Positions 2,372 to 61,983 of a stretch of DNA of 64,000 bases are shown in pieces. Every line of letters starts with the position of its first letter. Position 1 is the first letter of the stretch. The DNA comes from Sulfolobales archaeon (GTDB taxonomy: Archaea; Thermoproteota; Thermoprotei_A; Sulfolobales; NBVN01), in assembly GCA_038831135.1 (NCBI GenBank), contig JAWBKW010000001.1, forward strand, positions 69,614 through 133,613. The letters are read 5' to 3'. The translations under genes were made by a program, and so were the position numbers. The notes below the pieces were generated by a model. That model saw only the letters and a list, made by a program, of their open reading frames with translations, was not told the DNA's origin and did not search any database.

Positions 2372-3070
2372 ATGGTGATTACAGTAGATCAAATCGAGAG
2401 ATATTTGGGTCAAAAGATTAAGGATGAATATGGTAGGTTTATTGGGACGCTTTTAAGTGTTTATGCTGATGTTTCAGGCAGTGTTGAATCTGTTGAGATC
2501 GCGTTGAATGAGGATAATTATAGGCAGATACATAGTGAAAGATTAAAGTTAACTCCCGACGGTATTGTTGTTATTCAGGATTGGAAAGTTGATGCTATTA
2601 ATGTAGAGAATCAGTTAGATAGAGTTAGGAAGAGGATGAGGGCTGTAGAGGAGCTATATAGGAAGGGTAATATACCAGGTCATGCTTATGAAGAGATGAA
2701 GAGTAGGTTTGATAAAGAGTTCAGTAAAATTAAGGAGAAAGTTAAGGAGGTTAAACTAAAATTAAGGCAGAGGATTAATGACCTCGAGGACCACATTATA
2801 AGGTTAGAGAAGGCTACCTCTAATTTAATGGTGCTTTACATGTCTAACGAGGTTAGTGAGGCATCGTATAAGGCATCAATAGATTACTTAAGGCAGTCCA
2901 AGACTAAGGCGCAGGATGAGAAGAAGGATATTGAGAAACACTTAGATATAATTGAGAAGTTAGAGGCTGAACCAACAGAAACTAAGACCCCTATAACAAC
3001 TACGCCACCGCAGTTACCTATAGTGCCGAAGTCTGAGGCGCCAATTCAGGTTCAGGTCGTAGACCATTAG
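2372..3070 (+). CDS. cdvA: cell division protein CdvA (PRC-barrel, coiled coil, Pro-rich C-terminal tail)
   Basis: 232 aa. N-terminal PRC-barrel-like segment, a long heptad-rich central region, and a C-terminal tail (TTTPPQLPIVPKSEAPIQVQVVDH). Located immediately upstream of the ESCRT-III and Vps4 genes. Confidence 0.85.
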   Translation: MVITVDQIERYLGQKIKDEYGRFIGTLLSVYADVSGSVESVEIALNEDNYRQIHSERLKLTPDGIVVIQDWKVDAINVENQLDRVRKRMRAVEELYRKGNIPGHAYEEMKSRFDKEFSKIKEKVKEVKLKLRQRINDLEDHIIRLEKATSNLMVLYMSNEVSEASYKASIDYLRQSKTKAQDEKKDIEKHLDIIEKLEAEPTETKTPITTTPPQLPIVPKSEAPIQVQVVDH

Positions 3071-3084
3071 ACGAGGGATTATTA

Positions 3085-3963
3085 GTGAGTGTTTCAGCAA
3101 GCAACTCTGCCGGCAGTTTCAATAAGATCTTCAGGATATTTACTGATATAACTGGTTGGAATAGTAAGAGGACTTTAAAAAGGTCTATTTTAGAGATTGC
3201 TATAAAATTAAGAGAATATAAGGATATGCTTGAAGAAACTGTTAGTAGGTTAAGGTTAAGGCATGATGATCTTTTTAGGTCGGCGATCACCGCATATGTT
3301 AAGGGAGATAAACCAAAGGCAGCTATCTATGTTAATGAACTAGCTGAGATAAGAAAAATAATCACCAATATATATACTTCAGTTCTTGCTTTGGAGAGGG
3401 CTATCTTACGTATTGAGACAATCAAAGAGATCAGTAACATTAACTTAGCCTTAGGCTCTGTACTAGCAATATTGAACGTCCTTAAGGGTCAGGTAATTAA
3501 CGTGGTTCCTGAAGTAGCTACTGGGATAGACGTCCTCACAAATGAGATTAGGAATTTAATACTATCAACCTCAGGTACTACCGTCTCACAGGATAAGATG
3601 TTAGATCTGTCTGATGAAGCTCAGAAGATACTTCAGGAGGTCAAGGAGGTCGCTGAGGCGAAGATAAGTAAGTCATTACCTCAAATACCTGAAGAGTTAC
3701 TTAAGACGTCATCAGGTGGGGAATTTAAAGTTGTGGTTAACGGGGCCTCTCAACCCATAGCAGGGAAGACAGTAAGTAAAGAGGTAAAGCATCAACGAAG
3801 TGTTGGTGACTCATTAGCCCTAGAGAATAAAGTGCTTGAGTATATTTTAACGCATGGTGGGTTTATCGATGTTTCAGACGCGGCTAAGCAATTCAACGTA
3901 AGTAAGGAGGAAGTTATTCAGGCTCTTAAATCTCTAAAAGAGAAAAATAAAATCACGTTTTAG
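3085..3963 (+). CDS. cdvB: ESCRT-III family protein CdvB with C-terminal winged-helix domain
   Basis: 292 aa. Helical Snf7-like core followed by a wH-like tail (LENKVLEYILTHGGFIDVSDAAKQFNVSKEEVIQALKSLKEKNKITF). GTG start. Sits between cdvA and cdvC. Confidence 0.8.
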   Translation: MSVSASNSAGSFNKIFRIFTDITGWNSKRTLKRSILEIAIKLREYKDMLEETVSRLRLRHDDLFRSAITAYVKGDKPKAAIYVNELAEIRKIITNIYTSVLALERAILRIETIKEISNINLALGSVLAILNVLKGQVINVVPEVATGIDVLTNEIRNLILSTSGTTVSQDKMLDLSDEAQKILQEVKEVAEAKISKSLPQIPEELLKTSSGGEFKVVVNGASQPIAGKTVSKEVKHQRSVGDSLALENKVLEYILTHGGFIDVSDAAKQFNVSKEEVIQALKSLKEKNKITF

Positions 3964-4014
3964 TTTCCAATATTAAGGTAATTTATTAATAGCTTATGTT
4001 TAAGGTGAATTTAA

Positions 4015-5148
4015 TTGAGTCAATCATACGAATATCTAGAAGGAATGGCAAGGCAGTACGCCATTCAAGCAGTAAGGTACGATAAAGAAGGAAAGTTCGA
4101 CGATGCAATAAAGAACTATAAGAAGGCAGTTGAAGTTCTCAGGAGGATAGTTTCATTATATCCTGATGGTGGTCTAAATAACATATATAGGCAATGGGTT
4201 AAAGAGTATGAGAAAAGAATTAAAGATCTTGAATCAATGAAGCTTGCAACAACTTCCCAGAATTATATGCAGTCCAGCAGCGATGATGTACTGAATGAGG
4301 TAATATTTAAGGAGAAGCCTGGGGTCACTTTCAATGATATAGCTGATTTAGTAGATGTTAAGGAGGCTGTTAAGGAGGCCATAATATATCCTACATTAAG
4401 ACCTGAGTTATTCCCTCTAGGATGGCATAGAGGTATATTGTTATTTGGTCCTCCTGGATGTGGTAAGACGTTATTGGCAGCAGCAGTTGCAACGGAGATT
4501 GACGGTATATTCATACATTTAGATGCTGCATCTATAATGTCTAAATGGCTTGGTGAGGCTGAGAAGAATGTCGCAAAGATATTTAAGAAGGCTAGGGAAC
4601 TCTCCCAGAACGGTAAACCAGTCATCATATTTATCGATGAGGTTGACTCACTTTTAGGCATGTATAATAGTGAAGTAGGTGGTGAGGTTAGGGTTAGGAA
4701 TCAATTCCTTAAGGAAATGGATGGATTATTGGATAAGTCATTCAAATACTTCATATATGTTATAGCGGCTACGAATAAGCCCTGGAGACTTGATGAAGCA
4801 TTTATACGTAGGTTCCAGAAAAGGATATTCATCCCCCTACCTAATAAGGAAGCTAGGGTTGAGCTCCTCAAGCTCTATACAAAGGGATTGAAACTATCTG
4901 AAGATGTTGACCTTGAGAAACTATCTGAAATCTTAGACGGTTACACAAGTAGTGATATAAGGGACATAATTATGGCAGCGCATTTAAGGACTGTTAAGGA
5001 GTTATTTGAAAAGCAGGGTGGGTCAGGAAATCCAAGGGAGATTACCTTGGGAGATTTCACTGATGTGATTAAGAGTAGGAAGCCAAGCGTCAGTAGAGAG
5101 GCTATTAAGGTATACGAGTCGTGGTACGAGAAGTTTAAGGCGGTGTAG
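4015..5148 (+). CDS. cdvC: Vps4-like AAA+ ATPase CdvC (MIT domain plus AAA)
   Basis: 377 aa. N-terminal MIT-like helices, Walker A GPPGCGKT, Walker B IIFIDEVD, second region of homology [19 protein letters not shown] start at 4015, or ATG at 4045. Confidence 0.9.
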
Positions 5149-12985: not shown

Positions 12986-13444
12986 ATGCATGTTAAGCTA
13001 GATTCTATTTTCGATACGTTAAGTCCTTTAATTCCTTATGATATGTTGGTTAGTGCTTTTAGTGAGGCCGAAGAACTTCTATCTAATGATGTAGCGTTTT
13101 GGATAGCGACTAAATGTCCCCCGGAGGAAAGATGCATTATTACGAAGCTTAGGTTCCTGTTCAGGTACGACTACGTTAATAGCGTAGTTATGAAAGCGTT
13201 TCTGGAGGTTTACTTAAGTCCTGAAATAACTGTTGGTGAGTTCTTCGGTAACTTAAACCAAGTCATAAGTAAGTTCGGAGGGGAGTTCGAGTTAAGCATA
13301 GGGGAAGTTAAGATAGTTTTTGGGTTATCTGCCACGCGATTAAGCGATGTTTTCAAGATAATTAATTCGTTAAAGGATTCATTAAAATTAGAGTTTCAGT
13401 TAAGTGTGGAGGGTTATGAGGTGTTAGTGAGGGATGAGGGGTAA
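12986..13444 (+). CDS. hypothetical protein
   Basis: 152-aa ORF overlapping the dphB start by 11 nt. No motif recognised. Confidence 0.5.
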   Translation: MHVKLDSIFDTLSPLIPYDMLVSAFSEAEELLSNDVAFWIATKCPPEERCIITKLRFLFRYDYVNSVVMKAFLEVYLSPEITVGEFFGNLNQVISKFGGEFELSIGEVKIVFGLSATRLSDVFKIINSLKDSLKLEFQLSVEGYEVLVRDEG

Positions 13445-14973: not shown

Positions 14974-15717
14974 TTACTTAGTCGCTACCTTACTTCCTTT
15001 CCTCCTACCAGTCCTCTTAGAGGCTATATGACCTACCTTCCTGCCTGGAGGCGCGTTCCTTGATACTGTAGATGGTCTAGAGACGCTCTGGTGCGAACCT
15101 CCTCCATGCGGGTGCGATACAACGTTCATAGCAACACCCCTAACTTTAGGCCATTTCTTAGCTTTAACTTTCCATTTATGGAATGATGCTCCAGCCTTTA
15201 GAAGAGGTTTTTCAATCCGTCCAGCACCGGCAGGTACACCTACAGTAGCTCTAGCCGAACTTAGAATACTTTTGCTACTACCACTAGGTAACTGAACGAT
15301 GGTGTAGTTGCCAGACCTACCCAATATTGTTGCATAGCTGCCTGCCTGCCTTGAGAGTTTACCGCCATCACCAGGATTTAACTCAATATTATATACTTTA
15401 GTACCCTCCGGTATGTTACTTAATGGTAAAGTATTTCCAACACTTACAGGTGCTTGAGGACCTATGCTAACTTCCTGACCTACATACATGCCTTCAGCAG
15501 CAGGTATATAGTACTCAACCCCATTAGAGAGTCTGATATGGGCTAGCGGTACCCACCTACCAGGGTCATGTATTAGCTCTAGAACAACACCACTTAATGT
15601 TTCATTGGTTGGTGGTGGGTATTTAGCAGGCGCCACATGTAGGTGTTTTAGATTACGGAATGTTGGTGTTCCTCTCCCCATTCTCTGAGCTAGTATCTTC
15701 TTACCCATATACAGCAC
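14974..15717 (-). CDS. rpl2: ribosomal protein uL2
   Basis: 247 aa. Contains SHPHGGG. Confidence 0.95.
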   Translation of the reverse strand: MLYMGKKILAQRMGRGTPTFRNLKHLHVAPAKYPPPTNETLSGVVLELIHDPGRWVPLAHIRLSNGVEYYIPAAEGMYVGQEVSIGPQAPVSVGNTLPLSNIPEGTKVYNIELNPGDGGKLSRQAGSYATILGRSGNYTIVQLPSGSSKSILSSARATVGVPAGAGRIEKPLLKAGASFHKWKVKAKKWPKVRGVAMNVVSHPHGGGSHQSVSRPSTVSRNAPPGRKVGHIASKRTGRRKGSKVATK

Positions 15718-15718
15718 C

Positions 15719-15982
15719 CTATAAAATGCCTAGTTTAGTAGCTACTTCCGAAGCCTTAAATTCCGGTTTTAATCTAATGAACGCCTTTTTCTCTCCCTTA
15801 GGCGTTATCAACGTCCTTACATTATCAACCTTAACGCTAAACAATTTCTCTACCGCGTATTTGATCTCTTCCTTAGTTGAGTCTATGTCTGCTATAAATG
15901 TGAGGGTGTTATACTTCTCTATATAGTTTAGGGACTTTTCAGAGGTTACAGGCCTTATCAGTACTTTTGTAGGTTCTTTCAA
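15719..15982 (-). CDS. rpl23: ribosomal protein uL23
   Basis: 87 aa, located between L4 and L2. Confidence 0.9.
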   Translation of the reverse strand: MKEPTKVLIRPVTSEKSLNYIEKYNTLTFIADIDSTKEEIKYAVEKLFSVKVDNVRTLITPKGEKKAFIRLKPEFKASEVATKLGIL

Positions 15983-16800
15983 AGCGTTACCACCTCATAC
16001 TTCTTCCTAATGATATCTAAAGCCTTTAACGTGATTAACGTTAACCTCCCTGGAAGACCTCCAGGAGCTAAGACCTCCACATTTAAAGTATTTGCTGGAA
16101 TAACATCTACACCTGGTAAGTTCCTAATAGCCCTTACTACAGGTACTTCATCGCTTGAGACAAGAACTAAGAGGGATTTAGGTTCCCTGTACTTCCTACC
16201 TCTCATTTTACCTTTACCTGAAACTATCTTAATCCCTTCTTGAGCCCTAACGACGTCATCCCACAATTTAAGATTAGTTAAAACCTTCTTAGCTTCGGAA
16301 GTTATGTTTATGTTTTCGAAGTCATCTACAACTAATATAGGTAATTGTTCATGATTTACGACATGCCCTCTGGCCTTAACCATGGACGCTTCGGAAGTAG
16401 CTGAGAGTGCTGAGGCAATAGCTATAAGTCTTTCCTTGTTGTTTACCTCTTCATGTATTCTGGCATTAACTTTAGGTGGATGTGCTAACCTACCACCTTT
16501 AGCCATAGGTGCTATTACGGCCCTACCATTATCTAATCTCGGGACCCTAGCCATGCTACGATTAATGCCCCAACTCTCACCAACTCTTCTTTTACCAGCT
16601 AGTGGATCTCTCCCCTTAGGTTGGATCCTAGCTGTGAGGGATGCATGGAAGGCCCTCCTAATGATGTCTTTCCTGATAGGGTAGCTAAATACTGGTGGTA
16701 GCTCAACTTCATTTACGACATTACCGTTTAGGTCGTAAACACCTGATCTTTTGTCTTTTGAATTAGTTAGTAATAATAATCTGTATGCCACCTTAGACAC
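15979..16800 (-). CDS. rpl4: ribosomal protein uL4
   Basis: 273 aa. Operon position and a basic loop region support the call. Confidence 0.9.
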   Translation of the reverse strand: MSKVAYRLLLLTNSKDKRSGVYDLNGNVVNEVELPPVFSYPIRKDIIRRAFHASLTARIQPKGRDPLAGKRRVGESWGINRSMARVPRLDNGRAVIAPMAKGGRLAHPPKVNARIHEEVNNKERLIAIASALSATSEASMVKARGHVVNHEQLPILVVDDFENINITSEAKKVLTNLKLWDDVVRAQEGIKIVSGKGKMRGRKYREPKSLLVLVSSDEVPVVRAIRNLPGVDVIPANTLNVEVLAPGGLPGRLTLITLKALDIIRKKYEVVTL

Positions 16801-17817
16801 CTACATCTTACTTTCTAAGCTTAGGTACGTGAGCGTTGGTGCCCCAGGCGGTATCCAGGTGGGAGGTCTTATAGGATGTCTTAGAACTAAGGGTCTCTTA
16901 GGTACACCCATGACGCTGCCCTTAATTAAGACGTAGTCTGATTTGACAAGTCCGTAATGTGGGAACCCACCCGAGGGTACTACCTCATACCAATTACTGC
17001 CTATCTTGATAATCCTTTTATTAAACTCTGTACGTCTGTGGAAGCCTAACTGACCTGCCTGAGGAACTGTACTTAAGGCACCCATTGTCGGGCTTCGAGA
17101 ACCTATCCTCCTACTTCCTTTTCGATGCTTATGCCACCGAGGTAGTTCCTTAACACCAAATCTCTTAATGACTCCTTGAAAGCCCTTCCCCTTTGTTACG
17201 CCTATGATGTCTATGAATTGCCCTTCTGTGAAAACATCTGAGACTCTTACCTCCTTACCAAGGATCGATGTTACGTAGTTTAGCTGCTTTGTTAGGTCTC
17301 CACCTCCTACCTTAACCTCAAGTAAGTCGGGTTTCTTCTTACTTAGACCTCCTGCAAGTTTCGGCTGAGTAGCTACTATTACTGAAATCCTGTTAATAGC
17401 CTCTATATGTTCGTTAATGAATGAGAGTTTCTTATCTAGGTCACCGATTTTTAAATTAGGGATCTTCCTCCAAAGCTCTAGGTCTTTAGGAGGCTCGATC
17501 CAACCTTCGTAGAAAGTCTGCGAACCCCACATACCTAAACTACTATAAGCCCTAATAGCTACCGGAACTATAGGTGGGGTCTCCAAAACAGTTGCCGGTA
17601 TAACTATTTCCCTACCGCTGGTTAATGAATTAGGGGAATCATCAATTATTAATGCGTGAGTCATACCGACCTTATAACCTATAAATGCGAGTAACTTAGG
17701 ATCTTCTATATTTAATTCAGGCCATGTCCTTACCCTAGGGAGAAGTCTACTAGCTCTCTTCCTAGGTCTAAATGCTAAGCTCCCTCTATGAGGTGCTGAG
17801 GTCTTCCTACGTGCCAT
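16801..17817 (-). CDS. rpl3: ribosomal protein uL3
   Basis: 338 aa. N-terminal PRRGSLAFRPRKRA-like sequence and an FQG motif. Confidence 0.95.
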   Translation of the reverse strand: MARRKTSAPHRGSLAFRPRKRASRLLPRVRTWPELNIEDPKLLAFIGYKVGMTHALIIDDSPNSLTSGREIVIPATVLETPPIVPVAIRAYSSLGMWGSQTFYEGWIEPPKDLELWRKIPNLKIGDLDKKLSFINEHIEAINRISVIVATQPKLAGGLSKKKPDLLEVKVGGGDLTKQLNYVTSILGKEVRVSDVFTEGQFIDIIGVTKGKGFQGVIKRFGVKELPRWHKHRKGSRRIGSRSPTMGALSTVPQAGQLGFHRRTEFNKRIIKIGSNWYEVVPSGGFPHYGLVKSDYVLIKGSVMGVPKRPLVLRHPIRPPTWIPPGAPTLTYLSLESKM

Positions 17818-19264: not shown

Positions 19265-19750
19265 GTGAATGATATGGCTAGTACCAGTATTGATATAGCA
19301 CCTGAGTGGAAGTCGTTCAGGTATAGAGGCAAGACCTTAGAGGAGCTTATGAATATGTCCATGGATGAGTTGATTCAGTTACTGCCTTCTAGAGCTAGGA
19401 GGTCCTTACTTAGGGAATCGGACTCTAACGTACGTGCCCGTAGAGTTCAAGTAGGTTATAAGGAATCCCCCAGGATGAAGTTATTAGAGAAGGTGATGAA
19501 GGCGCGGAAATTGGCGAGTGAAGGTAAGAACGTAATTATAAAAACCCATGTTAGGGATATGGTGGTTCTTCCAGTAATGGTTGGGCTAACAATCGCAGTC
19601 TACAACGGTAAGGAATATATCCCAGTTAAGGTAGCTCCTGAAATGATTGGGCACTTCCTAGGTGAGTTCTCCCCGACTTGTAAGAAGGTTGAACACGGAG
19701 AGCCCGGACTAAAGGCTACAAGGAGTACGTTATTTGTTGCTATGAAGTGA
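19265..19750 (+). CDS. rps19: ribosomal protein uS19
   Basis: Contains [11 protein letters not shown]...LPSRARRSL and VYNGKEY. The likely true start is the ATG at 19274. Carries a ~13-15 aa lineage-specific insertion after RRSL. Confidence 0.9.
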
Positions 19751-20134
19751 TTCTAATATAAAGTTTCTTAATTTCATCATATCTCTTTGGGCTAGTACGA
19801 ATTTATACGTCCCAAACCTAACTTTTAGATAAACATAGTATATGTTGGGGTTCTTACTGACGTACTTATCGAAGAGTTTTAGGAAAAGTTCGGAGTTTGC
19901 TATAACTCTTCTACATTCTAATCCTGTAATATCGTCCATACTTATTAGAAGTGAGGACCCTCTGGCATCTCTAACTATCTCGTACTCCCTCAAGGAGAGG
20001 GACGTCTTCCTATCAATTAACTTTAATGGTATCTTCCCCTTCAGTACTATCTCTAAATAATTATCATTAATTACTATACTACACTGCTCGATTAAATCAT
20101 TATCTATGTAGAAAACTTTACGTAAAACCTTCAT
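19730..20134 (-). CDS. hypothetical protein co-transcribed with rtcB
   Basis: 134-aa ORF starting 8 nt after the rtcB stop. No archease motif or other known motif recognised. Confidence 0.55.
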
Positions 20135-20142
20135 TGTAATTT

Positions 20143-21606
20143 CTAACCTTTAGCAACACCTACGGGTCTTAACTTAGCCACTAATGCAGCGATCTTAACC
20201 TTATGGGATACTATTGCAACTCTATCAACGTCTTTATAAGCTCCTGGGGCTTCCTCGGAGACTACGTCCTTAGTTGCAGCTCTTAAGTATATTCCTAACT
20301 TACTTAGTTCGTTCTCAACATCAGCCGGTTTATATCTCCTTATGGCGGCCTCCCTAGATAGCCACCTACCAGCTCCATGCGCAGCTGAGTAGAACGTCTG
20401 CATACCTTCAGGGATTCCAACCATTACATAGCTAGCGCTGCCCATAGACCCCGGTATCAGAACTACTTGACCTATTTCCTTATGGTCCTTAGGTATATCA
20501 GGGTGTCCCGGTGGGAATGCCCTAGTAGCTCCTTTCCTATGGACTACTACCTTCTTAGTTTTAGAGTCTATTACATGTTCTTCGATCTTAGCTATGTTAT
20601 GTGCTACATCGTAGACTGTCTCAAGACCTAATTTACTTGGATCGGTTTTCAGAACCTTACCGAAGCTCTCCCGGACCCAATGGGTGATTAACTGTCTGTT
20701 GGTCCACGCGTAATTGGCTGCAGCAGCCATCGCTGCAAAGTAGTCTTCACCCTCACGAGACTTTACAGGCACTGAAGCTAGTTCCCTATCGGGAGGTGTT
20801 ATTCCGTACCTCCTCATAGCCTTTTCCATAATCATTAAGTAATCGCTGGCTACCTGATGTCCTAGTCCTCTAGACCCTGTATGTACCATAACTGTTACCT
20901 GTCCTTCGGTCTCGATACCCAGTTTCTTAGCTATTTCTGGAGCATATATCTTATCAACTACTTGGATTTCTAAGAAGTGATTACCGGCACCTAATGTCCC
21001 TAGCTGAGGGGCACCCCTGTCCTTAGCCGATTTACTAACCTTACTGGCGTCAGCTCCCTTCATAGCTCCACCCTCCTCGATGTGGTCTAGATCTTCATAC
21101 CAACCAAAACCTTTCTCAACCGCCCACCTAACACCCTCCTCAAGTACCTTATCTAGCTCTGCAACAGTTAATCTAACCTTCCCGGTACTTCCCACTCCGC
21201 TTGGGACGTTCCTGAATATCTCGTTCACTAAATCTTTCACTTTATCCTTAACGTCGTTGTAAGTTAAGTTGGTTCTAAGTAATCTCACACCGCAGTTGAT
21301 GTCGTAACCAACACCACCAGGTGATATCACACCTTCTTCATAATCCATAGCAGCTACCCCACCTATTGGGAAGCCATAGCCTTGATGTCCGTCAGGCATG
21401 ACGTATACGGACTTCAGAACACCTTTTAAGCAGGCAACATTAGCTGCTTGAACTAGAGTTAAGTCTTCCTCCATCTTCTTAAGGAGGAAGTCATCAGCAA
21501 ATACAACGGCGTCAACCTTCATACATTCTTTACTTTCTTTAGGTATTACCCAAGTATGGTCGTTCACCTTCTTGAGCTGTATCCTATGAGACATCGTTCT
21601 TACCAC
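20143..21606 (-). CDS. rtcB: RNA-splicing ligase RtcB
   Basis: 487 aa. RtcB-typical metal and GTP-binding segments: DGHQGYGFPIGGV, GYDINCG, GAGNHF, HTGSRGLG, AHGAGR. Confidence 0.95.
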   Translation of the reverse strand: MVRTMSHRIQLKKVNDHTWVIPKESKECMKVDAVVFADDFLLKKMEEDLTLVQAANVACLKGVLKSVYVMPDGHQGYGFPIGGVAAMDYEEGVISPGGVGYDINCGVRLLRTNLTYNDVKDKVKDLVNEIFRNVPSGVGSTGKVRLTVAELDKVLEEGVRWAVEKGFGWYEDLDHIEEGGAMKGADASKVSKSAKDRGAPQLGTLGAGNHFLEIQVVDKIYAPEIAKKLGIETEGQVTVMVHTGSRGLGHQVASDYLMIMEKAMRRYGITPPDRELASVPVKSREGEDYFAAMAAAANYAWTNRQLITHWVRESFGKVLKTDPSKLGLETVYDVAHNIAKIEEHVIDSKTKKVVVHRKGATRAFPPGHPDIPKDHKEIGQVVLIPGSMGSASYVMVGIPEGMQTFYSAAHGAGRWLSREAAIRRYKPADVENELSKLGIYLRAATKDVVSEEAPGAYKDVDRVAIVSHKVKIAALVAKLRPVGVAKG

Positions 21607-32062: not shown

Positions 32063-32521
32063 ATGCTTTTAGCTTTATACGTTTTAATGATATTCGCGGT
32101 CTTCACACCTTTCTCACTTCTCTTGAGGTTCATATTGGTAAGGATTGGTGTTAATTCAGTTCTTCAAGAGATTAGAGAATTAAGTGAGAGAGCATCTAAG
32201 GTCAGTCCTAAAGATAAGAAAATGCGTATGATTAGGGAGAGGTATGATGCGCTTAGAAGGAAGCTTAGGAATGTATTCCTCATAAATCTCTTTACTTTAT
32301 GGATCGCTATTTTTACTGCGGTCACACTATCTAACTTAGCCTTAATTACGTTATCAACTACCTATGGCATCACTATGGGTTTTAGGAGTCCCTTAAGAAT
32401 TCCTGGCTTGGTCATGGGTGAGGATCAGTTAAACATTCTTTTAGTTGTTATGGCAGTTATTATGGCTTACCAACCAGTACATAATAAGTTATCGACTATG
32501 GAGAAAGTCTACGAAGTTTGA
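32063..32521 (+). CDS. DUF106-family membrane protein (Oxa1/YidC-like insertase homolog)
   Basis: 152 aa with three TM segments and a basic coiled loop. Sits in the conserved slot after adk in archaeal spc operons. Confidence 0.6.
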   Translation: MLLALYVLMIFAVFTPFSLLLRFILVRIGVNSVLQEIRELSERASKVSPKDKKMRMIRERYDALRRKLRNVFLINLFTLWIAIFTAVTLSNLALITLSTTYGITMGFRSPLRIPGLVMGEDQLNILLVVMAVIMAYQPVHNKLSTMEKVYEV

Positions 32522-33444: not shown

Positions 33445-33768
33445 ATGCCTGCCATAGAAGTAGGTCGGATATGTATCAAATTACGTGGTAGGGAAGCAGG
33501 TAAGAAATGCGTTATAGTTGATATAGTTGATAACAACTACGTAGTAGTTACAGGTCCTAAGGAGTTAAGTGGGGTTAAGAGGAGGCGTGTAAATATAGGT
33601 CATTTAGAGCCTCTGGATAAGAAGGTAGAGATAAGTAAGGGGGCTAGTGATGAGGAGGTTATTAAGTCTTTAGAATCAGCTAACTTAACGGAATTCATGA
33701 GAGAGAGGTTGAAGGTTAGTAAGGAGTTATTGCTTAAAGTTAAGGCTTTGAGGGAGGGTGTTAGCTGA
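33445..33768 (+). CDS. rpl14e: ribosomal protein eL14
   Basis: 107 aa. KOW-like IEVGRICIKLRGREAGKKCVIV. Confidence 0.9.
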   Translation: MPAIEVGRICIKLRGREAGKKCVIVDIVDNNYVVVTGPKELSGVKRRRVNIGHLEPLDKKVEISKGASDEEVIKSLESANLTEFMRERLKVSKELLLKVKALREGVS

Positions 33769-34882
33769 AGGGTATTCCACCCTCCATTACTTTATCGGTG
33801 TTTTTATGGATTTAACGTCTGAGGGTTTTAAATTCGTATTGAATTTGGATTCTTACGGCGGCGTTAGTAGGGAATGGTTAGTTAGGAGGGATGAATGTAC
33901 TGATGAGAGGTTTGGCGGTCTCCCGTCTTTAAGGCCCCTAGCTCAGAGACTTAATTATGGGGTTGTAGTCGTTGATAAGCCTCCAGGACCTAGTAGCCAT
34001 GAGGTAGTTTCATGGATTAAGTTGATGTTAGGAGTTCCTAAGGCCGGTCATGGGGGAACCCTAGAGCCCTCCCACCATTAGGTGGTTGGGCGGGGATATC
34101 CTAAGGTCAGCGGCGTACTTCCAGTTACTTTAGGATTCGGGACTAAGGCTGTTGGTATGTTGATGTTAGCTGATAAGGAGTACGTTGCTATCATGCAACT
34201 CCATGGAGGGATCAGTAGTGGTAGATTGGGAGAAGTCTTAGAGGAGTTCACAGGGGAAATATATCAGAAACCTCCTGTGAAGGCATCGGTTAAGAGAGCC
34301 TTAAGAGTTAAGAAGATTTACAGTATTAAAGTCTTGGAGTTTAAGCACCCCTATGTTTTGATGGTTGTCAGTTGCGAACATGGAACTTATATAAGGAAGT
34401 TAATCCACGACATAGGTGAGGTATTAGGTGTTGGGGCACATATGCGTGAATTAAGGAGGACTAAGACAGGACCTTTCAGAGAGGATGATAAGTTGATAAC
34501 TATGCATGAACTATCTGAAGCAGTATATATTTATAAGGAATTAGGTGACGAGACCCAACTAATGAAGTACATACTACCAATAGAGTATGCGGTTTCACAC
34601 ATGCCTAAAATAATGATCTCAGACGGCGCCGTAGATGCTTTAGCAAATGGGGCAGACCTGGCAATACCAGGAATAGTAAAGCTACATAACAATATAGGAA
34701 AAGGGGAGAAAGTAGCAATACTATCATTAAAGGGTGAATTAGTAGCAATCGGTAAAACATTAATGACGTCAAAGGAGATGATGGAGGTAGAGAAAGGATA
34801 CGCTGTGAAAAACTTAAGAGTAGTAATTCAGCCAGGAACGTATCCAAGAATGTGGGGGAAACACAAACCCAAACACATTTAA
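33758..34882 (+). CDS. cbf5: H/ACA RNP pseudouridine synthase Cbf5, interrupted by a 33-nt BHB intron (exons ~33758/33806-34064 and 34098-34882)
   Basis: Two same-frame ORFs are split by a TAG inside the catalytic motif (HGGTL|EPSHH*VVGRGY|PKVSGVLPV). The C-terminal part has the TruB core and a PUA domain. The ATG at 33806 is a plausible true start. Confidence 0.9.
34065..34097 (+). other. bulge-helix-bulge (BHB) intron within cbf5 mRNA
   Basis: Central 4-bp helix 34059-34062/34092-34095. 3-nt bulges at 34063-34065 (AGA) and 34096-34098 (AUA). Inner helix 34066-34069/34088-34091 plus an apical stem 34072-34076/34081-34085. Excision restores the GAT (Asp) codon in frame. Confidence 0.85.
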
Positions 34883-34913: not shown

Positions 34914-35000
34914 GCCGGGGTGCCCGAGCGGTCTAAGGGGCTGGCCTTGAGAGCCAGTGGGCAACAGCCCGCGCGGGTTCGAATCCCGCCCCCGGCGCCA
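34914..35000 (+). tRNA. tRNA-Ser (anticodon UGA), CCA encoded, no intron
   Basis: Acceptor GCCGGGG/CCCCGGC. Anticodon stem CUGGC/GCCAG with loop CUUGAGA. Long variable arm GGGC-AACA-GCCC. T arm GCGGG-UUCGAAU-CCCGC. Discriminator G followed by CCA. Confidence 0.9.
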
Positions 35001-36557: not shown

Positions 36558-39404
36558 GTGATGTACATCTCCTCCATTAAGGCAGGGCTTTACTTAATTT
36601 TTATATGTCTCTGTCTTAATGTTGTAGCACCCTTTTTAGGGGTCCTGTGGTTATTAGATTACCTACATGTTTATGCTAACTCACTTGGTGGGTGGTCGAT
36701 AGATTCTGAAGGTGCTAATGAATCTAAATACACCTATAGCGTCAAAGAGTTCGGATCTGCCATTAAACTTGTCCTCTATATGAATTCTTCTGGAGATATT
36801 AACAAGGATTGGATAAAATTGATCGTGTATGGTAGTATCATCACTATTGAAGGTAATACTACATCGTATGAGAATTATATTGCCGGGTGCGTTAAGATAG
36901 GTTATGAGGGTGATAGAAAAGGAACGACTCGAGGTCTTCACGTAATATATTATTTATTACCAAAAGTCACTTACGTTAATTTTATCGAGTTAATCCTTCA
37001 TTCTGATGGAGGTCATCCAAAACTATATATAGGAAAGTCATGGGTTGAGGTGTTAAATATGACGTCAACTTACTGGATCCATGAAGATGGATTAAATAGC
37101 CAAGGCATCTACGTTTCAGGGTTAACATCTTGGGATGCAGGCGAGTTAAAGGTTGCAGTGTTCTCGCAGAATTACCAAAAAAGTCAACTATCAGTGTATT
37201 ATGGTAGGGCATTCAAGCCTGAAATGGGAGGTACTGCAGATATTTATGTAGACGTCGGCTATATGGGAGGCTTTAACATAGCACCTATGAGCAGTTACGG
37301 TACAGGGAAATATACTGTTAAACTTGATGTCGGTGTTAAACAATCTAATAATATAGAGGAGGTCTTAAGGGCTCAGGATTTTGAAACCATCCTCTATATG
37401 AAAGGAGGTGGTGGATGGATTGAGATGCCTGTAGGATTTGCCGCAGATAGGGTTGAAGATATACTACTTGATCTTATAGTGGATTATGGTTTAGAATTTA
37501 TTAAATCACCCATGGGAAGAGCATTCTTTAAGTTTATTCCCTATATCAGTCAAATCATTGAATGGTTAGACCTTTTCTCAAGCCTACAGTATGATGACCT
37601 CGTAAATGGTAGCAAGAGATTGGTCTTCAGCAATATTCATATGGATCCTAGATCTAATAACATCGTATACGTCTGGACTCATTTTGTCGGTGAAACAGAG
37701 TCCTACATGTTTTCAGCCAACTTAGTGAATTTCTATGGCGATCCGCCATGGCAGAGCATATTGGAGAAGTATTTCGGTGTTGATGTCTGGAGACTTAATT
37801 ACGGCGGTATATATGTAGGGGGTGTAGCCCTCGACTACTTTAACGTACCAGATATTGCATCAGAACTCCCTCAAGGAGGTGAAAGACCAGCCACTACAGA
37901 GATATTAGTAAAATTCGATAAACCTATAGATAGGAGTTCCCTACCTCCTTTCGATAACTCCATTAAGATTTGGGTAGGTGGTGATGAGAGACCTTTCCTA
38001 GAACATTTTAGGTACGAATTAGATCGAAATAACACATCATTACGTATCTACCCTAATTACCGATTAGATTATGGAAGTATATACGTTATTGAATTTACGC
38101 AGGGTATTAGAGGGGTTGATGGGACAAACCTTGTTAAGTCATATAGTATGTGGTTTACTACTGAACGGAAGCAACAGGTAGGGCGTGTGCTTTACTACGT
38201 TCTACCATCTGCAGTTACTTCGGCTTATCATAAGGGGAAGGTATTCGAAGCGTATTACTGTGATAATGTTTCTGTTATAGGGGTTGGACTAAATAAGGCT
38301 ACCATACGTTTTATGGAGAGTGGAGTGAATGTTGAAGCTGAGTACTTTGGTGAGGGATTATTCTATACGAATGATGTAGATATAGACTACTACGATGGAG
38401 GATTTGGAAGACTCTACATAGCCAACAATACTGTTTGGTTCGTACCATTCTCAGCGAAAGACTATGGGACTCCGCCACATAGTGGCTCGCTGATATTCAG
38501 CTTAGGTAGTACTGCAATTATATTAAATCCTAAGCACGCGAAGGTCATTATCTCTTGGTTGAGTGTTGGGAATCCGGAAATAAAGAAGGCTTTAAGGGAT
38601 GCTGGGATCGTTGAGGGTGCTGAACTCTACCTAGAGCCTGTACCCGTAATGGACTACTCGAAGGTATCCTCTATTAAGGTAGGTGAGGGAGAGATAGTAT
38701 CTGTGACTGAGCCTTGGCTTAACGGGACACATCTTCCTTTATACTTATTGACCACCATTGATAGACAGATCCATGACTTAGGTAAAGTGTTAGGGAATTA
38801 CTCATCATTGTATAAGGGCCTAGGTGGGATGCCAGTAGATTGGGATGTATTCTTATTTACCATCTCAAACATCACACATATGAGGGCGTGGAGGTTAACT
38901 CCTCCGGGTTATGCCCAGTTCGTAGAACAACCGAAGATAAATACCTACACCATTAGATTTCCCGACTTACCTGCTGAGATCACCTTATTAGCTAACACCA
39001 CCATCAAGTTGGTTAATACTTCTTATACGAACCAGGAGATCCAGGTAGTTGTAGAAGGAGAGTATGGGAGCTCCGGCTACCTCATAGTCATGATACCTGA
39101 GCAACTCGGTATAGTAGCTAAGTCTGCTACGGTTGATGGAAAACCGGTGGAGGTTGAAGCGTTGAATCAGACAATGTTTAGCGGTGTTAATGGGGTGAGA
39201 CTCACATATAGATTCGCGCAGAGTAACTCAACGATAATTATAACTGTTTCTCCTCCTATATCGTCAGTAACTCAGACCTCAACCAATTTTACTGCAGAAG
39301 GGAGGGCTCAGACGTATCCAATGCTACTGACAATAGCGGCGGTAATTGCAGTAGTGGCAGTCGTAGCAGTCGTCTTGATTAAAGTCACCATTAGAAGACC
39401 CTAA
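36558..39404 (+). CDS. large extracellular, C-terminally membrane-anchored protein with Ig-like (SbsA/Big_5-like) domain
   Basis: 948 aa. Hydrophobic N-terminal signal/anchor, many N-x-S/T sequons, an Ig-like module around 37885-38165 (TEILVKFDKPIDRSSL...YVIEFTQGIRGVDGTNL...MWFTT), and a C-terminal TM helix (LLTIAAVIAVVAVVAVVLIKV) followed by RRP. Confidence 0.6.
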   Translation: MMYISSIKAGLYLIFICLCLNVVAPFLGVLWLLDYLHVYANSLGGWSIDSEGANESKYTYSVKEFGSAIKLVLYMNSSGDINKDWIKLIVYGSIITIEGNTTSYENYIAGCVKIGYEGDRKGTTRGLHVIYYLLPKVTYVNFIELILHSDGGHPKLYIGKSWVEVLNMTSTYWIHEDGLNSQGIYVSGLTSWDAGELKVAVFSQNYQKSQLSVYYGRAFKPEMGGTADIYVDVGYMGGFNIAPMSSYGTGKYTVKLDVGVKQSNNIEEVLRAQDFETILYMKGGGGWIEMPVGFAADRVEDILLDLIVDYGLEFIKSPMGRAFFKFIPYISQIIEWLDLFSSLQYDDLVNGSKRLVFSNIHMDPRSNNIVYVWTHFVGETESYMFSANLVNFYGDPPWQSILEKYFGVDVWRLNYGGIYVGGVALDYFNVPDIASELPQGGERPATTEILVKFDKPIDRSSLPPFDNSIKIWVGGDERPFLEHFRYELDRNNTSLRIYPNYRLDYGSIYVIEFTQGIRGVDGTNLVKSYSMWFTTERKQQVGRVLYYVLPSAVTSAYHKGKVFEAYYCDNVSVIGVGLNKATIRFMESGVNVEAEYFGEGLFYTNDVDIDYYDGGFGRLYIANNTVWFVPFSAKDYGTPPHSGSLIFSLGSTAIILNPKHAKVIISWLSVGNPEIKKALRDAGIVEGAELYLEPVPVMDYSKVSSIKVGEGEIVSVTEPWLNGTHLPLYLLTTIDRQIHDLGKVLGNYSSLYKGLGGMPVDWDVFLFTISNITHMRAWRLTPPGYAQFVEQPKINTYTIRFPDLPAEITLLANTTIKLVNTSYTNQEIQVVVEGEYGSSGYLIVMIPEQLGIVAKSATVDGKPVEVEALNQTMFSGVNGVRLTYRFAQSNSTIIITVSPPISSVTQTSTNFTAEGRAQTYPMLLTIAAVIAVVAVVAVVLIKVTIRRP

Positions 39405-61188: not shown

Positions 61189-61983
61189 GTGTTTCCATTG
61201 CTTAACTCCGGTGAAGCCATCAACGTAATTACTTTTGAGTACATTCCACTTTTCTGTATTCCATTACCGCAGAAATATAACCCCGTGATAGTTACACCTA
61301 TAAGGAATTCTAGAATTGCAGTTAGTGTTGAACTTATCCGCGAGGAAGGATTAGAACTTTCGGGAATAGATAACGTTTTAGAGAGATATATACTAAGTTT
61401 CTACCAATTCATATATGATGAGTTAGGTTTCGATCATGGATTTAGAATACGTAGTGAAGGTTCAACTCTTTATAAGGGATTTACATACGTAGCCATAACT
61501 AACTCTATGGCTAAGTTACTTGCCGGTCGACTAACGAACGAAGTCTACGAATTTCTTAACATGATAGACAATAGGTTTGGAATACCCCAATGCATTACTG
61601 CTCTAAGAGTTTATGAGCGTATTGGGGAGGCATATATTTGGAGGTACGGTGATGATGCTGTAAATATGGGTAGGTTCGATGTTTTCGTTAAGGGGTCTTC
61701 ATCGATATCTGACTCAGTCCATAGGAACCCAATAATAGATGATGCTCAGATCAATAACATACTAACACGCTTAATAGGTCTAGTAATCATAGGTATATAT
61801 AATACTATAGGTAGTCACGATATCAACTTACTCAACAATTACATCAACGTATTTAACAAGATATGGGAAAGCATATATGTGTTCAAGGAGTGTCCATGCA
61901 ATAAGTTTATGCCTAACCACACTTACTTATATGTTCAGGATATTGATGAGGTGTTAGCCCTTGAAATCGAATTACATATATAA
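61189..61983 (+). CDS. hypothetical protein at the position where other archaea encode mevalonate kinase (possible degenerate GHMP-fold protein)
   Basis: 264 aa, GTG start. No Gly/Ser-rich GHMP phosphate loop and no GAGGGG motif. Only weak resemblance to MVK (NSGEAINV versus FGEHAVV; GFRIRSEGS...AITNSMAKLLAG versus GF.I.I.S.IP...GLGSSAA). Confidence 0.45.
   Translation: MFPLLNSGEAINVITFEYIPLFCIPLPQKYNPVIVTPIRNSRIAVSVELIREEGLELSGIDNVLERYILSFYQFIYDELGFDHGFRIRSEGSTLYKGFTYVAITNSMAKLLAGRLTNEVYEFLNMIDNRFGIPQCITALRVYERIGEAYIWRYGDDAVNMGRFDVFVKGSSSISDSVHRNPIIDDAQINNILTRLIGLVIIGIYNTIGSHDINLLNNYINVFNKIWESIYVFKECPCNKFMPNHTYLYVQDIDEVLALEIELHI

Follow-up and report, generated by a model that had tools for sequence, protein, structure and literature searches.

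The window analysed here, that is, the whole 64-kb stretch of DNA, carries the gene for the H/ACA pseudouridine synthase Cbf5 in two pieces. According to the list of open reading frames, an upstream ORF at 33758-34081 (with an ATG at 33806) and a downstream ORF at 34082-34882 share one frame and are divided by a TAG at 34079-34081. Read straight through, the genomic sequence gives HGGTL-EPSHH*-VVGRGY-PKVSGVLPV, where the asterisk is the stop. A preliminary description of this DNA had reported cbf5 as two such same-frame ORFs parted by this TAG, and all of its coordinates agree with mine. The NCBIfam Cbf5 equivalog NF003280 is matched by the two ORFs at positions 2-68 and 68-322, which abut at position 68, the aspartate. 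The N-terminus read from ATG 33806, MDLTSEGFKF, is kept in loci L001-L005, which come from MAGs named Sulfolobales or Desulfurococcaceae (66-79% amino-acid identity).

The gene stands in a typical secY-adk-cmk-L14e-cbf5 arrangement. Pfam confirms cmk and L14e, and I infer secY and adk from ORF sizes and from the synteny of another locus, L108, described below. Beyond the cbf5 stop lies a tRNA-Ser(UGA) gene that, by ARAGORN and Rfam, is intron-less and the sole tRNA gene of the 64-kb window. It is also the sole Rfam match in the window, and Rfam returned no match at the intron site. The features on which the following account depends are these:

20143-21606, minus strand: RtcB RNA ligase, the presumed exon joiner (Pfam RtcB, E = 3.4e-178, full-length)
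33806-34064, plus strand: cbf5 exon 1, from Met1 to the G of the catalytic Asp codon (NF003280 positions 2-68)
34055-34058, plus strand: 5' strand of an imperfect outer exon-exon helix, pairing with 34099-34102 with an A57xC100 mismatch
34059-34062, plus strand: 5' strand of the central 4-bp helix, exon CCCU, pairing with 34092-34095
34063-34065, plus strand: 5' bulge AGA, predicted cut after G34064
34065-34097, plus strand: bulge-helix-bulge (BHB) intron of 33 nt with the in-frame TAG at 34079-34081; its removal restores GGTLDP
34066-34091, plus strand: inner helix (34066-69 with 34088-91) and apical hairpin (34072-76 with 34081-85, loop AUUA)
34092-34095, plus strand: 3' strand of the central helix, intron GGGG
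34096-34098, plus strand: 3' bulge AUA, predicted cut after U34097
34098-34882, plus strand: cbf5 exon 2, from the AT of the Asp codon through the stop (NCBIfam Cbf5 positions 68-322)
34914-35000 (Rfam 34914-34997): tRNA-Ser(UGA), starting 32 nt after the cbf5 stop

Fold of the intron and the predicted spliced product

The central helix consists of C34059-G34095, C34060-G34094, C34061-G34093 and U34062-G34092. The pairs, bulges and hairpin listed in the preliminary description are all present, and an unconstrained MFE fold of 34045-34115 agrees, showing the central and inner helices, the bulges and the apical stem. The outer helix comprises A58-U99, G56-C101 and G55-U102 together with the mismatched A57xC100, and at this place the MFE fold pairs 34051-55 with 34099-103, which closes a 3x3 internal loop. 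The strict canonical hBHBh' motif, in which the flanking helices including the outer one are uninterrupted, is thus not formed, and in the MFE fold the 3' splice site of the intron falls outside the strict bulge. Since the outer helix is imperfect, the earlier view of this motif as a relaxed form, based on the weakness of that helix, was right.

The predicted cuts lie between the second and third nucleotides of two 3-nt bulges around the 4-bp helix. Because A34065 is the same base as A34098, making both cuts one base later would give the same mRNA. This ambiguity at the A/A boundary is settled by two other loci, L027 (bulge AGU) and L101 (AGG), in which the intron begins with a non-A base, and the cut is accordingly placed after the second base of the bulge.

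Fold energy compared with shuffled sequence gave z = -1.4, which is not significant, so the structure alone is unconvincing. A naive BHB scan over both strands of the window, which asked for a 4-bp helix flanked by 3-nt bulges, an inner helix with 3 or more pairs and an intron of 12-150 nt, returned 21,262 matches, 429 of which 'join' open stretches of at least 60 codons; the ORF-joining matches listed are junctions of ordinary neighbouring genes. The motif on its own therefore has no discriminating power, and further mRNA introns in the window can be neither claimed nor excluded by it. The significance of the cbf5 intron rests on its exact restoration of a codon and on conservation with covariation in 26 loci.

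The 33 nt, which contain no ORF and fall within a range of 16-44 nt, are inserted inside the catalytic Asp codon of GGTLDP. Excising 34065-34097 yields CTA G/AT CCT (the slash marks the junction) and GGTLDPKVSGVLPV in frame, so that Leu-Asp-Pro is rebuilt just as had been proposed. The predicted spliced junction reads ...ACCCUAG/AUCCUAAG... and is 33 nt shorter than the genomic sequence. From ATG 33806 the spliced Cbf5 is 347 aa long, and Pfam finds in it DKCLD, TruB_N, TruB_C_2 and PUA, which is the full Cbf5 domain set. The preliminary description had also proposed an alignment with a Cbf5 orthologue. When this was run with Pyrococcus furiosus Cbf5 (PDB 2hvy), the two proteins were colinear (E = 3.7e-107) and gapless at the junction, and KAGHGGTLDPKVSGVLPV, which spans the splice junction, was identical in both. 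Pfam, NCBIfam and 2hvy thus all identify the host gene as cbf5.

Conservation and covariation across loci

Intron-bearing cbf5 loci were gathered from five MAGs named Sulfolobales or Desulfurococcaceae (L001-L005), from three named Bathyarchaeia or Bathyarchaeota (L007, L014 and L016) and from metagenomes; among the loci returned by the scan of genome contigs, none bore the label of a cultured Sulfolobus or Aeropyrum. An insert of 18-42 nt lies at the same cbf5 codon in 27 loci, and 17 of 80 metagenome loci carry the intron. The structure counts that follow cover 26 loci; L108, with a 22-nt insert, is the further, 27th locus. The alignment was anchored on splice sites defined by the protein and not by the structure.

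Pairing in the central helix is complete (100% of cells, 26/26 loci). In three loci a C-G pair in this helix has become U-A by a double change, in which a synonymous change in the exon Thr codon is matched within the intron. The inner helix is 93% paired, and all four of its pairs show compensatory changes on both sides. The outer helix is 77% paired across loci and is perfect where relatives use GGG-ACC with UCCC. The 5' bulge is AGA in 23 of the 26 loci and the 3' bulge is ANA in 25 of them. The covariation score of 0.338 compares with 0.148 for shuffles, none of which (0/500) reached it, and registers slid along the alignment gave at most 0.12. The structure is thus conserved among orthologues with covariation, and this conservation, together with the anatomy of the intron and the exact restoration of frame and codon, is a direct observation.

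Intron length differs even among the closest loci: L001 and L002 share the 33 nt of the window, L003 has 32 nt, and L004 and L005 have 34 nt each. In some of these loci exon 2 therefore falls into another frame, and only excision from the RNA restores Cbf5 in every one. Compensatory changes (CCACC/GGUGG, CCACUU/AAGUGG, CCAAU/AUUGG) preserve the apical hairpin between L001-L005 and the window, and thus the interior is maintained as a hairpin despite drift of its sequence.

The known cbf5 intron and its probable splicing

The intron in the window is the already known cbf5 pre-mRNA intron: gene, insertion site and archaeal order all agree with the published cases. Watanabe et al. (2002, FEBS Lett 510:27) reported it first, and Yoshinari et al. 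(2006) also treated it. Yokobori et al. (2009; PMC2738675) surveyed 43 species and described introns of 16-44 nt, mostly with a relaxed BHB, cut between the second and third bulge bases and disrupting the catalytic codon. In that survey all of the listed Sulfolobales species and 17 of the 23 listed Desulfurococcales species possess the intron (PMC2738675, Additional file 1), and Pyrodictiaceae and Ignicoccus lack it. The preliminary description had spoken of reports from a few Crenarchaeota; such introns do exist, but the phrase understated their spread. As late as 2020, a paper gave cbf5 as the sole known case of a BHB intron within an archaeal coding region (PMC7714728).

The intron of the window shares with those of Sulfolobales and Desulfurococcales its insertion point, relaxed BHB, cutting rule, length range and host clade, and an in-frame intron of the same 33-nt length is on record for Stetteria hydrogenophila (PMC2738675). 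It differs from the published cases in the sequence of its interior hairpin and in coming from an uncultured MAG lineage outside those papers, known from sequence alone and without annotation of the intron in the public record.

Assignment of the host to Sulfolobales or Desulfurococcales fits the data insofar as depositor-given names can be relied on: the nearest Cbf5 loci are in MAGs named Sulfolobales or Desulfurococcaceae, and a 99% identical protein comes from an NCBI MAG named Sulfolobales archaeon. A cell-division operon of CdvA, ESCRT-III (Snf7-like) and Vps4 (CdvC) occupies 2372-5148 of the window and, as a lineage marker, is consistent with a host of the Sulfolobales/Desulfurococcales type.

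I hold with high confidence that 34065-34097 is an archaeal cbf5 pre-mRNA intron that is spliced at its BHB by EndA and joined by RtcB. In the transcript, the exon CCCU of the Thr-Leu codons would pair with the GGGG at the 3' end of the intron. EndA, the tRNA splicing endonuclease, would recognise the relaxed BHB and cut after G34064 and U34097, and RtcB would join the exons and probably circularise the 33-nt intron. The join would recreate the GAU of the catalytic aspartate and so allow a 347-aa active Cbf5, the H/ACA pseudouridine synthase, to be made. Cleavage by EndA, ligation and a spliced mRNA are expected here by analogy with experiments on orthologues in other species: cDNA and EndA cleavage demonstrated splicing in A. 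pernix, S. solfataricus, S. tokodaii and S. acidocaldarius (PMC2738675). Those experiments, on the orthologous intron of Aeropyrum pernix and of three Sulfolobus species, demonstrated just the mechanism that the preliminary description put forward (PMC2738675). Circularisation junctions at the cbf5 intron have been seen in S. solfataricus (PMC3326292).

As for the machinery, RtcB does lie at the coordinates given for it earlier, but on the minus strand, which corrects that account. An EndA or tRNA-intron endonuclease domain was not found among about 50 scanned ORFs of the window (a set that leaves out the ribosomal-protein ORFs at 23-32 kb), and the gene could lie elsewhere in the genome.

Several known systems resemble this one. 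In Haloferax volcanii, the HVO_1309 mRNA has a BHB processing site in its 5' UTR, and there too the archaeal splicing endonuclease acts on an mRNA (Schwarz et al., 2020; PMC7714728). That site differs in lying in a UTR of a euryarchaeon, not within coding sequence, and in rebuilding no codon (PMC7714728). Archaeal tRNA and rRNA BHB introns share the recognition motif and presumably the enzymes (EndA and RtcB), and the relaxed motif is typical of crenarchaeal non-canonical tRNA introns, cut by an (alpha-beta)2 endonuclease (PMC2738675; PMC5829648). Unlike in tRNA and rRNA introns, the host RNA here is an mRNA and the exon sides of the helices are constrained by codons (Gly-Gly-Thr-Leu-Asp-Pro).

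In HAC1/XBP1 a short mRNA intron is also excised from stem-loop sites by proteins only, independently of the spliceosome, and joining is of the tRNA-ligase type (RtcB in metazoans) and changes the protein that is made. The nuclease there is Ire1 and not EndA, and splicing is regulated by stress. The resemblance between HAC1/XBP1 and the cbf5 intron is one of analogy and not homology; XBP1 is mentioned in PMC5435141.

Beyond being removed, the intron might act as a regulated gate, as the preliminary description suggested, in which splicing efficiency, set for example by temperature, tunes the amount of active Cbf5 and hence H/ACA pseudouridylation. Long retention at the catalytic codon across two large clades is compatible with such a function, and a role as a negative regulator was proposed by Watanabe et al., as quoted in PMC2738675. 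However, conservation is confined to the elements required for cleavage, the length and sequence of the interior vary freely, lineages that lost the intron are viable, and a 2020 review gives the function of the intron as unknown. I regard regulation as unlikely.

Far less probable is that the interruption is dealt with at translation, by readthrough, by ribosomal bypassing of the 33 nt, or by two polypeptides forming a split enzyme. The 33 nt do preserve the reading frame, and a GTG at 34082 directly follows the TAG. However, a readthrough product would carry an 11-residue insert devoid of Asp in place of the catalytic Asp. Readthrough, bypass and a split enzyme are rejected on three grounds. 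The frame is shifted by the intron of 32 nt in L003 and by those of 34 nt in L004 and L005, where readthrough therefore cannot work; the Asp codon is intact in neither of the two ORFs, and a split enzyme would therefore lack the catalytic residue; and cDNAs of orthologues show removal at the RNA level (PMC2738675). The 33-nt size and the frame-shifting lengths in relatives also rule out an intein and a group I/II intron.

The preliminary description had named an assembly artefact of 33 nt as a finding that would overturn it, and a pseudogene or a sequencing or assembly error that breaks the gene would indeed account for the in-frame stop and for gene callers dividing cbf5 into 91 aa and 266 aa. 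This reading is scarcely credible and is effectively refuted by independent assemblies and by conservation: an independent MAG assembly, GCA_038887955.1, is identical over 141 nt around the intron site and the 266-aa fragment has six NCBI MAG protein accessions, which together exclude an assembly artefact. A pseudogene is opposed as well by the 27 loci that have an insert at this codon, in which the BHB is conserved and changes on one side of a helix are compensated on the other, and by the otherwise intact and highly conserved flanking exons. Splicing of the cbf5 pre-mRNA at the BHB remains my preferred reading.

Bathyarchaeia-labelled MAGs, annotation and the rest of the window

MAGs labelled Bathyarchaeia or Bathyarchaeota carry a BHB intron of 18-24 nt at the same catalytic Asp codon of cbf5. 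Three such MAGs are represented by L007, L014 and L016, and seven metagenome loci group with them:

L007, 1255-1275: intron in a MAG labelled Bathyarchaeia or Bathyarchaeota
L014, 2703-2722: intron in a MAG labelled Bathyarchaeia or Bathyarchaeota
L016, 2703-2722: intron in a MAG labelled Bathyarchaeia or Bathyarchaeota
L049, L067, L070, L079, L085, L097 and L099: metagenome introns grouped with those of the labelled MAGs

These introns have a helix of the CCCU/GGGG type (CUCU in place of CCCU in L016, L049 and L067) and an AGA bulge. In a fourth MAG, L108 (GCA_038857965.1, labelled 'Candidatus Bathy...'), positions 2995-3016 form a BHB intron of 22 nt. Its cbf5, called as 68 aa and 267 aa, stands in the synteny secY-L34e-cmk-L14e-cbf5, as in the window. 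One further contig, P0100, consulted for the Bathyarchaeia context, starts 55 nt upstream of exon 2 and is uninformative, and L108 was used in its place. A quick neighbour-joining tree places the intron-bearing cbf5 genes in two groups. The window belongs to the crenarchaeal one; the second consists of the three Bathyarchaeia or Bathyarchaeota MAGs and the seven metagenome loci, with intron-less members interspersed.

The 2009 survey, which predates Bathyarchaeia genomes, found no cbf5 intron outside Desulfurococcales and Sulfolobales (PMC2738675). I found no report of a cbf5 intron in Bathyarchaeia in the literature searched, coverage of which is incomplete. Tentatively, and with somewhat less than even confidence, I suggest that the cbf5 intron extends beyond Sulfolobales and Desulfurococcales and that it either predates the ancestor proposed in 2009 or spread laterally. 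The early-origin version would entail losses in Thermoproteales, Thaumarchaeota and Korarchaeota. If it were true, the cbf5 intron would be the oldest traceable intron of a protein gene in Archaea, and the intron in the window would be one leaf of that history. The Bathyarchaeia introns are the only part of this analysis that might extend knowledge. For biology, the window itself only lengthens by one lineage the record of a well-documented case, and no new question follows from it.

The practical value of the window lies in annotation, as recognising the intron gives the correct 347-aa protein of an essential gene. Public gene calls divide the gene (33806-34882 in the window, 1225-2301 in L026) into a 91-aa DKCLD fragment, called in a sister MAG, and a 266-aa piece named 'Cbf5'. 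The N-terminal DKCLD is missing from 77 of the best 120 database homologues, which reach a length of only 229-290 aa, and some of these may be cut by contig ends; this proportion points to systematic mis-annotation in intron-bearing lineages.

Several other features of the window deserve mention. RtcB (minus strand) sits between the genes for S19 (19265-19750, plus strand) and L22 (21767-22243, plus strand). A 134-aa ORF at 19730-20134 (minus strand), which adjoins RtcB and overlaps the end of S19, has no Pfam or NCBIfam match. Furthermore, an L3-L4-L2 block at 14974-17817 lies on the opposite strand. The usual S10-type operon is therefore not intact in the window but both broken up and interrupted. 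No match in Pfam or NCBIfam was obtained for four ORFs of 152-286 aa (12986-13444, 32063-32521, 39513-40373 and 61189-61983). Two long ORFs, of 948 aa (36558-39404) and 1349 aa (42372-46421), match only Ig-like Big_5 and CARDB domains and probably encode surface or S-layer-type proteins, and between them lies a DNA methylase gene (40453-41379, minus strand).
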